IMG/VR virus record: IMGVR_UViG_3300050034_000403
Coordinates: 25,229-89,228 of that record
Source: a virus
DNA length: 64,000 bases
Direction: 5' to 3' (one strand)
This document shows, piece after piece, positions 20,410 through 64,000 of this stretch (position 1 is the stretch's first letter; each line of letters opens with the position of its first letter). Both the position numbers and the translations under genes were made by a program. Under the pieces are notes generated by a model that saw only the letters and a list, made by a program, of their open reading frames with translations, made no database searches and was not told the origin of the DNA.

Positions 20410-21018
20410 GTTGCGTCTATTCGGCGCACTGTAGAAGCTGTTTGATTGTTGCGCTTATCCAGCGCACTATGACTATCTTGCAACCTTTTTATAGCCAAAA
20501 AGCCGTGATGATTCTCGTGTTGCATCTACTCGATGCACTGAAACTGCCTTGTGACTTTGTGCTATTCCTTGACGCGTTGCGCTTTCTCGGCGCACTCATA
20601 CGTCTATAAATATCCCTTGTGTATTATTGCGCTTATTCAGTGTATTGTTGCGCTTATCCAGCGCACTCCTACTTTGTCGCACATGTTGCATCTCTCCGAT
20701 GCACTTTGACTGTACACCCCTACCTATCCATGTTGCATCTGCTCGATGCACTCATACTGTGCTCCTCAACCTATCCATGTTGCGCCTATGCGGTGCACTG
20801 AAACCGCATTACTGCGAAATCCAAGGCTCACGTACGTTGCATCTTCTCGATGCACTTCAACCAGTCTGCTATACAGCAGACAAAAACGAATGCCAATGGA
20901 GGTTGCATCTGTTCGATGCACTCATACGGATTTGGTACGGGATGCTGTTGTTGCGCTTATCCAGCGCACTAGAACATCTTGTCAGCTCATTCTTCAGGTT
21001 GCGCCTGCTCGACGCACT
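20410..21018 (-). CRISPR. CRISPR array 1: degenerate mini-array (about 13 units, most reduced to the 21-26 nt hairpin handle, short spacers)
   Basis: GTTGC(A/G)nnnnnnnnn(T/C)GCACT units start at 20410, 20448, 20519, 20576, (20626), 20647, 20685, 20732, 20779, 20836, 20902, 20950 and 20998. Four of them (20448, 20519, 20779, 20836) are full 37-nt repeats of the family in arrays 2-4. Confidence 0.8.
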
Positions 21019-21029
21019 CATATGACACC

Positions 21030-21062
21030 TCAATACTTTGCGCCAAGCCCCCGCGTTGTCAA
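21030..21062 (-). promoter_or_regulatory. Putative sigma70 promoter driving mini-array 1
   Basis: Minus strand TTGACA-N16-CAAAGTATTG; the same TTGAC...GGCGCAAAGTATTG layout occurs at 34024..34056 (+). Confidence 0.5.
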
Positions 21063-21071
21063 CAAATTTCT

Positions 21072-21599
21072 TTAGCTCCGCGATGCCAGAATTTTGGTTG
21101 CCTCAGTCAATGTAATCATAAGCGTTTGTGGATTGATCGGCGAAGCGATGAAGCCGTATTTCTCGTAGAACTGTTTTGCATCCTTAGAAATTGCATTTAC
21201 CAAAACCGCACGAATGCCGGCAATCTCAGCAGCCTGCAAAGTGCGCAAAACCGCATCCCGCAAAAGATCCGCCCCAATCCCGCGATGCTGAAAGTGTTCA
21301 TCCACAGCCAGTCGTCCGATCAGCATCACGGGCACTGGATCGGGCATGTTGCGCTTGATGCGTGTGGGTGCCTCGACATGTGCCACAGCACCAGTCGCCA
21401 GCGCATAAAAACCAACGACATGACCTTCTGAGCACACCACTTTAGTACGCGATGCTCCATTCTTCTCGTTTTGAAGTGCCCGCGTCTTCAACCACAGATT
21501 GAGAGATGATTCGCCACAGCAGAATTGCGTAAGATCATGTTCCACTGTCAGCTTTTCTGGAGCGGTAATACGGATCTTGGACGCCTCTACTCCTCCCAC
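21072..21599 (-). CDS. GNAT acetyltransferase toxin (TacT/AtaT family)
   Basis: FCCGESSLNLWLK, VVGFYAL, PVMLIGRLAVD...GIGADLL..A, FYEKYGF. Confidence 0.92.
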   Translation of the reverse strand: MGGVEASKIRITAPEKLTVEHDLTQFCCGESSLNLWLKTRALQNEKNGASRTKVVCSEGHVVGFYALATGAVAHVEAPTRIKRNMPDPVPVMLIGRLAVDEHFQHRGIGADLLRDAVLRTLQAAEIAGIRAVLVNAISKDAKQFYEKYGFIASPINPQTLMITLTEATKILASRS

Positions 21600-21871
21600 G
21601 ATGGTTTCCTCGCTAGCAGCTTTGCCAGTTTTGGGTTGGACTTGGGAGGATTGTCTAGCATGTCATTGAAGCGTTGGAACTCTTCTTTCCCGAGACGGAA
21701 GTAGCAGCGATCAAGCAAAATCGCTTCCGCTTCCCTGCACGCCGCATCCAGCATGAAATCCGTGCGGTTCCTTCCCAGCACTTCTGCTGCACTATCAATT
21801 AATGTCTTTTGCCGCAGATTGGCACGCAAATTGATGTTCGTAGCCCGCAATTCAGCAACGACAGAACCCAT
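21587..21871 (-). CDS. DUF1778 RHH antitoxin (TacA/AtaR family)
   Basis: INLR....QKTLIDSAAEVLGRNRTDFML.AA..EA...F...LDNPP..N..L..LL....WE. Confidence 0.92.
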   Translation of the reverse strand: MGSVVAELRATNINLRANLRQKTLIDSAAEVLGRNRTDFMLDAACREAEAILLDRCYFRLGKEEFQRFNDMLDNPPKSNPKLAKLLARKPSWEE

Positions 21872-21933
21872 GACCCACCTCCTGAATGTATACACAATGA
21901 GCGTACAGCATCGTGCGCACAATGTAAAGCGCC

Positions 21934-61529: not shown

Positions 61530-62013
61530 TGGATTCCCTCCATGACTTGCCCTCGATAATTCGTTGAATGGTTTGGTATACGACCCCATAGCGAGCCGCA
61601 ATGTCTTTCAAAAAAAAGCCAGATTTGCGCAAGCGACGAATTTCTGCGACTTGGATCGCTGTTAACTTGGCGGCCGAACTATTTTCACCTCTAGGCCTGA
61701 CTTTGCAAGTGCGGCCTTTTCTAACGCAATCGCGCATATTGTCGCGATTGGTTCCGTCAAATAAATGAGCGGGATTGCAGCAGGGTGGATTGTCGCAATG
61801 ATGACACGCATTCAGCGCCTGATAGCCATGCGCTAAGAAAAACGAATGCCGATGGGCTTTTACATACCGTCGCGGATTAGCCATACGAAACTTTCCATAT
61901 CCGCCACGAGATCTTGACGCTGTCCATATCCAGCACGGACCGAGTTCAGGACAAGATTTTGGGATTGGCCCGTTTTTGTCAACTTTTGACCAAAATCTTT
62001 CCGTATCCGTCAT
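61522..62013 (-). CDS. HNH endonuclease
   Basis: RFWSKVDK...CWIWT...GYG...AHR.S....HHCDNPPCCNPAHL..GT..DNMRD...KGR. Confidence 0.9.
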   Translation of the reverse strand: MTDTERFWSKVDKNGPIPKSCPELGPCWIWTASRSRGGYGKFRMANPRRYVKAHRHSFFLAHGYQALNACHHCDNPPCCNPAHLFDGTNRDNMRDCVRKGRTCKVRPRGENSSAAKLTAIQVAEIRRLRKSGFFLKDIAARYGVVYQTIQRIIEGKSWRESNA

Positions 62014-63059
62014 TTGGATACCTCTGTGCCAATCTGTACCAGTACGGGATGTCTCACAAACGGACAGATCTGGTGATATCCGCACCATTTGCGATCGCAA
62101 CCCCACCAGCTTTGGTTGGCCGGCACAAAGACGCCGGTTTTCATGGCGTGGATCAAATTGGTGAAGCGGTTTAAAAATACCTGCACGTCGTCCATGTCGC
62201 GTGTGGTGATCGTGGGCACGTATTTTAATGTCGGCTTCGCGGCATTGGTGCGGACCAGAAAATCCAACACCATTTTGTCGGGCAATTTCCCGTCCACGAC
62301 GTAGCTGGCTAGGGAATAAGCAGTAAGCTGCTCGGAATCATCGGCCGTGCCCGCTTTATTGTTCCCGTCCATATAGGACGGAATAGGCGATTTGCCCGAT
62401 GTTTTTGTGTCACGGATGACGAGCAATTCCTTATCTCCGTCATGCACAATTTCCTGCACGTCCTGCTCACCCACGAAATCAACGCCTGTGCGGGCAGCGG
62501 CATTTAATGACCGCGCCTGTGCGTGCAGGATATTGGCCGCGTATTTGTCGGGCGTCGCTTCTGCCGAAGCGTGCAATTCTTTTGCCCGGGAGCGCAAAAA
62601 AGCGTCCATGTCCACGGAGAATTTACGGCGTGTGCGGACTGGCTGAATTTTCGGTGCCGCCTCGTCGTGGTGCAATCCGGACAAAGAAATCGCCTTGTCC
62701 TTTGCCTCGCCCAATACCTGGTCCAGGCTTTTGCCATCCTTTTTCTCGTCCTGATCGAGTTCGATGGGTTCGTTTTTCTGCTCCTGCTCGAACTTGGCGG
62801 CCGAGATCGCGAGCACGTCGTCGCGCTTCAACAGCTCCCCTGTCTCGATCTTGTGGTCGAGATCCTGCGTCACCGATTCGTCTGTGGATTTGCCCACCAG
62901 CAGAAACGCGTTCGGCGGCGACTTGATGCCGAGGATGTAGCAGAAAAGGAAGCGCTGGCCACAATCTGCGGCCATGTTCAGCGCAGAGACGTGGATCTGA
63001 CGGCGCTGTTTGGATTTAGGCGTAATTTGTTCGATAGAAGGAACGACAGAATCTCTCAT
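62010..63059 (-). CDS. PD-(D/E)XK exonuclease (RecB/AddB/Cas4-like, four Cys)
   Basis: S.L....DCGQRF, G..D......IRDTKTSG, QLTAY, C-terminal C...WCGY..IC; partner of Bet. Confidence 0.85.
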   Translation of the reverse strand: MRDSVVPSIEQITPKSKQRRQIHVSALNMAADCGQRFLFCYILGIKSPPNAFLLVGKSTDESVTQDLDHKIETGELLKRDDVLAISAAKFEQEQKNEPIELDQDEKKDGKSLDQVLGEAKDKAISLSGLHHDEAAPKIQPVRTRRKFSVDMDAFLRSRAKELHASAEATPDKYAANILHAQARSLNAAARTGVDFVGEQDVQEIVHDGDKELLVIRDTKTSGKSPIPSYMDGNNKAGTADDSEQLTAYSLASYVVDGKLPDKMVLDFLVRTNAAKPTLKYVPTITTRDMDDVQVFLNRFTNLIHAMKTGVFVPANQSWWGCDRKWCGYHQICPFVRHPVLVQIGTEVSK

Positions 63060-63140
63060 AGCGTCCTCAATAATTTGAGAGATAGTCTGAATCCAATTTT
63101 TTGTCTACTGTAAAAAATTAGAGTAGACGCGCAGCGGAGT

Positions 63141-63335
63141 TTGCCTTATGCTGCGCGCATGGAAAAGAAAACCAAGTTGACGAAAGCCGATCCAGATTTT
63201 TATAGAAAGATTGCCGCCATTGCCGGCAACAATCTGGTGCGCAAGAAGGGTACAGAATACTTCTCTAAGCTGGCGGCAAAAAGCCACCCACGCGATCATT
63301 ATTTTGGCGGACGCCCCAAGAAGAAAGTGGCGTAA
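63141..63335 (+). CDS. Small basic protein with KGG-like motifs
   Basis: DPDFYRKIAAIAG......KGTEYFSKLAAK. Confidence 0.5.
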   Translation: MPYAARMEKKTKLTKADPDFYRKIAAIAGNNLVRKKGTEYFSKLAAKSHPRDHYFGGRPKKKVA

Positions 63336-63392
63336 CCGATTCCTTTTTTTTGCTGCCGTGCTCATGAGGCGCGAGGTTGTCGCGATTACCGG

Positions 63393-64000
63393 GTTGCATC
63401 TATTCGATGCACTAAAACCGCATTGCTACGGTGGAATGTCCACTTCTTCGTCAGACGTATACAGTTGCATCTATCCGATGCACTAAAACTGCGTTGCTAC
63501 AATAATCTCCCAATGGAGTGGGAACCCGACTATGTTGCACTTGTCCAGTGCACTAAAACCGCGTTACTGCATCGGCTTTTTGTATTTCTCCGTGTTGACG
63601 ACAGGTTGCACTTGTCCAGTGCACTAAAACTGCGTTGCTACGCCTGTCCATAAAGAATAAGCCTGAGGACATTAAGTTGCACTTGTCCAGTGCACTAAAA
63701 CTGCGTTGCTACGCCCAATGTCTCCGATGATGCTCTCTGGACGAACGGGTTGCACTTGTCCAGTGCACTAAAACTTCGTTGCTACGAGGTGCCGAGATGG
63801 GCAAAGACAACATTTATGTGGTTGCATCTATCCGATGCACTAAAACTTCGTTGCTACCACCCAAGATGGTGAACACCGATGGGCGCTCCACCGTTGCATC
63901 TATGCGATGCACTAAAACTGCGCTGCTACCGTCTCAGACCGTTACAGGCATCAACGTATAAATGTTGCACTTGTCCAGTGCACTAAAACTACGTTGCTAC
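63393..64000 (-). CRISPR. CRISPR array 4: at least 9 repeats and 8 spacers (33-36 nt), runs to the window edge
   Basis: Repeat GTTGCACTTGTCCAGTGCACTAAAACTGCGTTGCTAC interspersed with the GTTGCATCTATCCGATGCACT variant; starts at 63393, 63464, 63534, 63605, 63676, 63749, 63821, 63893 and 63964. Confidence 0.95.

Follow-up and report, generated by a model that had tools for sequence, protein, structure and literature searches.

Dispersed CRISPR arrays on a temperate phage contig and a family of Cas12m-related effectors in its relatives

Characterised Cas12m proteins are 577-614 amino acids (aa) long and use a single CRISPR RNA (crRNA) whose repeat-derived scaffold lies 5' of the guide, with no trans-activating crRNA (tracrRNA) (PMC10442227, PMC11013384). 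They silence by binding DNA without cutting it, and those variants with a D-E-D triad that have been tested behave in the same way (PMC10442227, PMC11013384). Here we analyse a stretch of 64,000 nucleotides (nt), referred to as the window, which comprises bases 25229-89228 of one IMG/VR virus record of 89,228 bases (IMGVR_UViG_3300050034_000403) and carries four CRISPR arrays of one repeat family; a fifth array lies in the same record outside the window. In related phages, arrays of this repeat family stand beside genes for a family of effectors whose nearest characterised relative is Cas12m. We consider it probable (about 0.8) that the window holds genuine type V arrays of a temperate phage, that their guides are read from the minus strand and that a Cas12m-related effector is encoded directly past position 64000.

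Several described systems come close to this one. Type V-M Cas12m (structures 8hhl/8hio, 8pm4 and 23vw) resembles the family described here in its TnpB-type RuvC domain with zinc ribbon and in a repeat hairpin that lies next to the spacer, and some Cas12m clades also show a D-E-D type triad. In contrast to Cas12m, the family has an effector that is about 130-190 aa longer, with a beta-rich N-terminal extension and 13-15% identity in structural alignment; it is found on temperate phages, is accompanied by cas4-cas1-cas2 in two of five relatives, and comes with several dispersed arrays of polymorphic repeats. MvCas12m of myxophage MV-1, which its preprint of September 2026 claims as the first Cas12m in a phage, is likewise a phage Cas12m encoded next to an array; adaptation genes are lacking, the triad is D-E-D, and no protospacers were found (10.64898/2026.09.14.751636). 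However, MvCas12m has 610 aa and one array of eight spacers with one consensus repeat, whereas the family here is larger, belongs to phages of probable Acidobacteria hosts and is represented in the present phage by five arrays. Cas12r of the Thermus Lalka phages is also a temperate-phage type V system without adaptation genes, with effector-proximal spacer differences between close strains, and its spacers target rival integrative elements (10.64898/2026.04.20.719267). It differs in belonging to another effector lineage (564 aa), in a repeat-derived part located 3' of the spacer and in having one short array with 29-nt repeats; the role proposed for it, conflict with integrative elements, may serve as a model for function here. 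Finally, virus-borne mini-arrays, solitary repeats and cr-like RNAs (PMC7099407, PMC11656645, PMC10120712) resemble array 1 of the window in being short, handle-centred, partly without normal spacers and located in phages with no visible cas genes; unlike them, array 1 coexists with long arrays of the same family and has a 20-nt spacer that is kept across diverged phages. In the open-access literature we found no paper that deals with the effector family, with type V systems in phages of Acidobacteria or with arrays in which all repeats differ.

Arrays, reading direction and the repeat handle

The four arrays of the window lie on the same strand and share one 37-nt repeat family, as the first-pass annotation of this DNA had described; its count of about 52 repeat units became 51 (12 + 19 + 11 + 9). 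With the fifth array, the contig holds about 58 repeats, and all arrays together take up about 3.7 kb, or 4% of it. The arrays and their parts are:

20410-21034, minus strand: miniaturised array 1; 12 hairpin units that recur at 38, 47, 48, 57, 66 and 71 nt
36664-37967, minus strand: array 2; 19 repeats and 18 spacers of 18-37 nt, mostly 33-37 nt
37968-38154, minus strand: array 2 leader; 187 nt, homologous by alignment to the leaders of relatives
41253-41994, minus strand: array 3; 11 repeats, all different
63393-64000, minus strand: last array, incomplete because the contig stops within it; 9 repeats, 8 spacers
contig 1538-1981 (L001:1538-1981), outside the window, opposite strand (+): fifth array; 7 units

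Arrays 2, 3 and the last one consist of regular direct repeats with unique spacers of similar length, mostly 33-37 nt, whereas array 1 is irregular and most of its units are reduced to a 21-nt handle. Array 1 lies downstream of a co-oriented GNAT acetyltransferase gene (21072-21599, minus strand; Pfam). Array 3, whose first, leader-side repeat is truncated to the handle half, begins 27 nt past the stop of a co-oriented gene at 42022-42630. The leader of array 2 aligns with the stretch between cas2 and the array in the related contig L023 and with the short spacers between effector gene and array in L022 and L047; the features common to these aligned leaders are an inverted repeat, CGCGAACC...GGTTCGCG, and AAGGAGATAA. 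The final ~45 nt of the array 2 leader contain TTGATC-N19-TATAAT, and this piece recurs as TTGACC-N19-TATAAT directly before the array outside the window, which is flanked by a glycosyltransferase-like gene and a 222-aa open reading frame (ORF). The first-pass annotation had proposed a division of labour between an acquiring array 2, an operon-embedded array 3 and a miniaturised array 1. Its anatomical side holds, with a full leader at array 2, an array 3 embedded close behind a co-oriented gene and an array 1 made largely of handles, while the functions assigned to them are putative; acquisition by array 2 at present is doubtful, as there is no cas1 or cas2 in the contig and the leader-proximal repeats differ.

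The reading of the arrays on the window minus strand, proposed earlier from array 2, is supported by three independent lines of sequence comparison. Firstly, effector gene and arrays are co-oriented in all five distinct effector-bearing viral contigs, in the direction that corresponds to the window minus strand, and the cas genes of the relatives that have them point the same way. Secondly, repeats decay at the leader-distal end: in array 2 the most uniform repeats stand near 37967 and the most decayed ones near 36664, and in L048 the decay affects the last two repeats. Thirdly, the last array has spacers 1, 2, 5 and 6 (numbered from its left end) in common with a strain contig (L024; 94-98% nt identity), while the two part ways further right; the common spacers lie away from the effector side and the divergent ones towards it.

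Read on the minus strand, the repeat has a variable 5' half, followed by AGUGC-NNN-G-NNN-A-NNN-GCAAC (21 nt) and then the spacer; only these 3' 21 nt are conserved. The handle ...AG-UGCAUC-GAACA-GAUGCA-AC directly before the spacer, as the first-pass annotation had drawn it, recurs when 93 repeats of six phages, 77 of them distinct, are aligned; columns 17-21 and 33-37 of this alignment are fixed partly through the selection of repeats. Natural stem variants include AUC/GAU, ACU/AGU and GCU/AGC. Covariation in the three inner stem pairs amounts to 18 compensatory double changes, and 99.8% of the cells are paired; this level was reached by 0 of 500 shuffles, and slid controls gave 17-51%. No anti-repeat of at least 11 nt was found on the effector-coding strand of the five effector loci (effector plus up to ~6 kb on each side; less at contig ends). 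The earlier assignment to tracrRNA-independent type V handles of the Cas12j or Cas12m kind agrees with this result and with the effector described below, which is closest to Cas12m by profile and by predicted fold.

Beside cas4-cas1-cas2 the repeats are uniform or nearly so (1 distinct repeat among 11 in L023; 4 among 14 in L048), whereas arrays without adjacent adaptation genes consist mostly or entirely of distinct repeats: 11 of 11 in window array 3, 14 of 17 in window array 2, 12 of 12 in L013, 17 of 17 in L019 and 14 of 16 in L049. As two arrays are compared here with a dozen, this contrast is a pattern and not a statistic. Mean pairwise repeat identity is 0.5-0.9 in the 5' half versus ~1.0 in the handle outside the loop. 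These sequence comparisons suggest that the effector constrains the handle alone and that the 5' half of the repeat matters for adaptation. Along the last array, repeats with an AUC/GAU stem are interspersed with repeats that have an ACU/AGU stem. An exchange of repeat-spacer units would explain this more easily than drift alone; the phage encodes RecT and an exonuclease. Contigs from DNA and RNA libraries that cross repeat borders run on into spacers missing from the 89-kb contig, which suggests that spacers vary within the population or that the unassembled part of the genome holds arrays.

The effector family and its place in related phages

An exact search with the repeat-core pattern located repeats of this family on 11 further IMG/VR contigs and on a single contig of a Terracidiphilus metagenome-assembled genome (MAG). 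All of these contigs are related phages, as judged by tblastn with the proteins of the window phage, and inspection of related phages revealed the Cas12m-like family in five viral contigs. Two genes of the window serve as anchors for the comparison of gene order:

60456-61601, minus strand: RecT recombinase; 62-71% identity in L022/L017 and L047
62010-63059, minus strand: PD-(D/E)XK exonuclease; homologues with 83% (L022/L017) and 85% (L047) aa identity

In IMGVR_UViG_3300017940_000554 (L017/L022), the RecT (71%) and exonuclease (83%) homologues are followed by a 10-repeat array and, ~60 nt past it, by a 745-aa ORF (P0001) on the opposite strand, which therefore reads into the array. L047 shows the order effector, array, exonuclease (85% identical to that of the window) and RecT. 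The point at which the effector stands in L017/L022 and L047 corresponds to the spot where the window contig breaks: position 64000 is the contig end and lies inside the last array, so that this assembly has no sequence past it. The strain contig L024 likewise ends inside this array, so that the repeats probably caused the break during assembly. In an attempt to extend the contig, JGI metagenome contigs were scanned for exact copies of the last spacer, with no match, and a scan with the unique sequence left of the last array returned a single strain contig, L024, which ends in the array too; the closest effector relatives (P0004, 80%) were not found in IMG/VR under another contig. The effector that the first-pass annotation had placed beyond position 64000 is thus predicted by the succession of exonuclease, array and effector in two related lineages, by synteny and not by sight.

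P0001 carries a Cas12f1-like TNB zinc ribbon (PF07282, E 8e-7). Its family (726-785 aa) falls into over 100 clusters at 90% identity and, at 50%, into ~30 clusters of full-length members, most of the family being unnamed in the source databases. When a profile of 30 members was compared with the Protein Data Bank, the best match was Cas12m 23vw (E 9e-22, three collinear segments), followed by UnCas12m4a, a Fanzor/TnpB-like protein, Cas12m2 and GoCas12m. An AlphaFold model (mean confidence score pLDDT 84.4) gave Cas12m2 8hhl (E 1.8e-18) and GoCas12m 8pm4 as the best Foldseek matches, ahead of Cas12f, TnpB, Cas12h, Cas-lambda and others. In the 30-member set the RuvC triad has D (21 members) or E (7) in motif I, E in motif II (29) and D in motif III (28), and the four zinc-ribbon cysteines are retained. 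With 726-785 aa the family lies outside the compact size range of Cas12m (~550-620 aa). In a profile search of 1.84 billion representatives, full-length members scored above 350 bits, and the next proteins (500-690 aa) scored below 150 bits and matched in their C-terminal part only. Because of this gap to shorter relatives, and as Cas12m is the closest match of both profile and predicted fold, the family is, by sequence and model, best described as a distinct longer branch with Cas12m as its nearest characterised relative, rather than as ordinary Cas12m.

Two of the five effector contigs, L023 and L048, have the order effector-cas4-cas1-cas2-leader-array, with cas4 (PF01930), cas1 (PF01867), cas2 (PF09827) and a leader of ~185 nt; L022, L047 and L049 have effector and array without adaptation genes beside them. 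In four of the five effector contigs a gene with a DUF7873 domain (PF25283) lies 0.7-4 kb upstream of the Cas12m-like gene and may be an accessory gene of the system:

L022:4011-4841: DUF7873 gene
L023:4493-5341: DUF7873 gene
L048:1443-2252: DUF7873 gene
L049:1194-1949: DUF7873 gene

In the contig of the window itself, the earlier statement that 64 kb contain no cas gene could be extended to all 89,228 bases. A tblastn search with the effector, Cas1, Cas2 and Cas4 of the relatives gave nothing below E 0.2, and comparison of 48 ORFs, including every listed ORF of at least 350 aa, with Pfam or PHROGs gave no Cas or TnpB signal; the functions found were phage, recombination and methylase functions only. 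A hidden effector was also sought among large unannotated proteins of the virion region (1548, 1269, 903, 694, 508 and 485 aa), which lie in the structural region between tail-fibre-like and terminase genes, and Pfam/PHROGs gave no RuvC or TnpB signal for them. A 462-aa gene that is conserved beside the arrays of relatives, considered as a compact effector, proved to be the tyrosine integrase.

The phage, its probable host and other features of the contig

From its gene content, the element is a tailed temperate phage. Matches in Pfam and PHROGs to a terminase, a tail fibre, a primase-helicase, an integrase, RecT, an endolysin and an antirepressor back this identity, and further genes encode a 1548-aa PHROG protein, a DNA methylase and a resolvase-type recombinase. 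The record is classed as linear and rated 82% complete by CheckV. Its left end cuts a radical SAM gene (contig 1-807, L001:1-807; the Pfam match starts at profile position 23) and its right end lies in an array, so the assembly is cut at both ends. The main landmarks of the window, apart from arrays and synteny anchors, are:

14031-16181, minus strand: large terminase (PHROGs)
38155-38901, minus strand: GH108 endolysin, co-oriented with and directly upstream of the array 2 leader
53270-55930: primase-helicase, 886 aa (Pfam/PHROGs)
57315-58703, minus strand: tyrosine integrase, a marker of temperate lifestyle; beside arrays in relatives, including the Terracidiphilus MAG contig

The sequences point to peat-soil Acidobacteria as the probable host, probably of the genus Terracidiphilus: two members of the effector family are named from Terracidiphilus MAGs, and one related phage contig with an array sits in a Terracidiphilus MAG. 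A 3-kb test stretch of the phage is present in 16 DNA runs from peat or permafrost, from 13 studies, and four metatranscriptome runs hold 6-22% of it.

Some further observations concern the genes and repeats around the arrays. The large terminase gene is unbroken here, whereas those of L016, L010 and L005 match in two to three pieces with gaps of 0.4-1.1 kb, which suggests that they carry inserted elements (intron, intein or homing endonuclease). Residues 172-261 of the primase-helicase match Hint_2 weakly (E 0.006, under the Pfam cut-off) and may be an intein remnant. Just before array 2, at 35079-36600, two overlapping ORFs have serine-recombinase domains, the first ending in a Recombinase domain and the second with Resolvase and Recombinase; they may be a split or rearranged recombinase gene. 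Between early genes, at 28524-34107, a ~40-nt element made up of TTTGATAGGGGACAC and then a run of T occurs six times, and it may be a repeated regulatory or terminator-like site. Five tandem 15-nt units at 46752-46841, within a 414-aa ORF (45915-47159), encode a repetitive acidic and lysine-rich peptide. The phage carries two tRNAs. Rfam at gathering thresholds called one tRNA only in the window, with no CRISPR-repeat or other family, and no hammerhead ribozyme at a candidate site at 25376-25486.

Proposed function, rival readings and meaning

According to the explanation we favour, the arrays would be transcribed on the window minus strand, and each unit would yield a guide RNA with a repeat-derived 5' part ending in the 6-bp hairpin plus AC, followed by the spacer. 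These guides would be loaded by a Cas12m relative of 726-785 aa that combines a TnpB-type split RuvC, its acidic triad being D/E-E-D, with a zinc ribbon and an additional domain at the N-terminus; the gene for it would lie directly past 64000, in the unassembled ~18% of the genome, and read into the last array. The remaining four arrays would be separate transcription units, two with the common promoter-like leader piece and the others downstream of co-oriented genes, and all five would form a distributed library of ~50 guides. The effector would require the last 21 nt of the repeat only, and the 5' half and the loop would drift freely where an array has no adjacent adaptation genes. By analogy to characterised Cas12m and to other phage type V systems, the likely use would be RNA-guided binding, possibly cutting, of the DNA of competing mobile elements or of host loci.

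Several results weigh against this explanation. The effector gene is absent from the 89-kb contig, and the case for it in this phage is therefore one of synteny, drawn from relatives that have flanking genes of 62-85% identity. The effector is ~150 aa longer than characterised Cas12m and 13-15% identical to it in structural alignment, so the behaviour of Cas12m may not transfer. A sigma-70 consensus scanner (16-18 nt spacing) called neither of the N19 leader motifs, for which reason we rate them as promoter-like. Contigs from three RNA libraries cover parts of array 2 (36721-37109, 36867-37033, 36778-37003 and 37233-37436) as well as other phage genes; they are strandless and may stem from DNA carry-over, and thus do not demonstrate transcription. 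Parts of the arrays have no RNA-contig cover, and one low-depth RNA contig contains a single joint of 36691 to 41463 (23-nt side). Ten other records that bear arrays or mini-arrays have no effector, and as one of them is rated 94% complete, some phages of the group carry repeats without an effector.

Moreover, no protospacer was found for any spacer. The first-pass annotation had looked to spacer matches in host and phage sequences for targets and a protospacer-adjacent motif (PAM), but the 46 window spacers gave no match in their own genome, the 254 spacers of all analysed arrays matched all analysed loci from array to array only, and two exact 24-nt spacer scans of IMG/VR gave no match. The spacers of array 2 gave short matches only in 201 Acidobacteriaceae genomes (34 genomes, E <=0.1), none of them perfect or near full length, a result that stands without a control comparison. 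Without a protospacer, neither a PAM nor a class of targets can be named.

Array 1 calls for a separate consideration, and its central unit is located as follows:

20519-20596, minus strand: fixed-guide unit in array 1; full repeat 20519-20555, 20-nt spacer 20556-20575, handle-only repeat 20576-20596

It is possible, though we would wager against it, that array 1 and its homologues in other phages serve not as a guide library but as an RNA decoy or anti-CRISPR of the solitary-repeat or Racr type against the effector of a rival prophage, or as a fixed regulatory guide on one target. Most of its units are handle-only, and its 20-nt spacer is identical in L009, L011 and L018, i.e. in four phages, while the adjoining spacer differs; the proteins which those three have in common with the window phage are only ~40-55% identical. 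Such guide-less repeats in genomes that lack cas genes, as known from RNA anti-CRISPRs and solitary repeats, would fit array 1 and the mini-arrays of L009, L011 and L018, but not arrays 2, 3 and the last one. L011 (IMGVR_UViG_3300022872_000004) is a smaller related phage of 40.9 kb, rated 94% complete, with a three-hairpin mini-array and the conserved 20-nt spacer. This record gave no match to the effector profile, with a positive control that worked, so that one of these phages appears to be effectorless; cr-like regulatory RNAs and repeat-like elements have been described elsewhere (PMC10120712). However, a 20-nt target for a fixed guide did not emerge: the best match in the own genome has 4 mismatches, the guide sequence occurs in IMG/VR only in the mini-arrays themselves, and in 401 Acidobacteriaceae genomes, with <=3 mismatches, match counts equal those of a reversed-pattern control. 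A decoy, in turn, would also inhibit the phage's own effector, if present.

We regard it as unlikely that the arrays are orphans whose guides are loaded in trans by a Cas12m-like protein from a prophage, another element or a host system, in line with the borrowing from the host that the first-pass annotation had allowed for. The lack of any cas gene in 89 kb would fit, as would the ten effectorless array-bearing records just mentioned, for which the positive control worked, and no effector was matched in the Terracidiphilus MAG to which a related array contig belongs; cas-less virus-borne mini-arrays are known as well (PMC7099407, PMC11656645). On the other side, the contig is 82% complete and cut at both ends, its left end lying in the radical SAM gene and its right end in an array. 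In the two lineages whose exonuclease comes closest to that of the window, the effector stands directly behind this same array. Furthermore, ~3.7 kb of arrays, two of them with leader pieces of their own, would be a large investment for borrowed guides.

Class 1 repeats carry a ATTGAAAC-type handle. The view that the repeat belongs to a Cas6-processed class 1 system of the host, read on the plus strand with ATTGCGAC as its 8-nt handle at the 3' end, is very improbable and largely refuted: although the plus-orientation consensus starts with GTT and ends with ATTGCGAC, which resembles such a handle, and although the Cas1 of the relatives belongs to the type I-C family (TIGR03640 of NCBIfam, 473 bits, cut-off 385), the ATTGCGAC end is the least conserved part of the repeat and is lacking from array 1 and from the truncated first repeat of array 3, all effectors found beside such arrays are type V and co-oriented the other way, and an exact-pattern scan of 185,579 species genomes returned the repeat in one phage-like contig only.

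Phage-borne Cas12m-type systems have hardly been described, and the family reported here is sizeable, common in peat and distinct in its architecture; its interest lies in the greater length of the effectors, the dispersal of the arrays over five places, the natural polymorphism of the repeats and the conservation of a fixed guide. If the arrays are type V arrays with a 21-nt handle, as we favour, arrays without adaptation genes could persist as drifting, recombination-proof, all-different libraries in separately promoted units, and the handle-only mini-array could, through its fixed 20-nt guide, work as a programmable repressor that acts on a conserved target in host or phage and that also serves smaller phages with an effector borrowed in trans; taken as one joint proposition this is speculative, and we think it would more probably fail than hold in full. 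The natural repeat polymorphism amounts to a mutational scan of what the guide RNA needs, namely 21 nt and the shape, not the sequence, of the stem, and it may be useful for the design of compact, recombination-stable multiplex arrays. The contrast between uniform or nearly uniform repeats beside cas1-cas2 and all-different repeats elsewhere offers a testable split of the repeat into one half for adaptation and one for interference. Finally, the fixed 20-nt guide that is common to diverged phages is a candidate for a natural CRISPR-based gene regulator.

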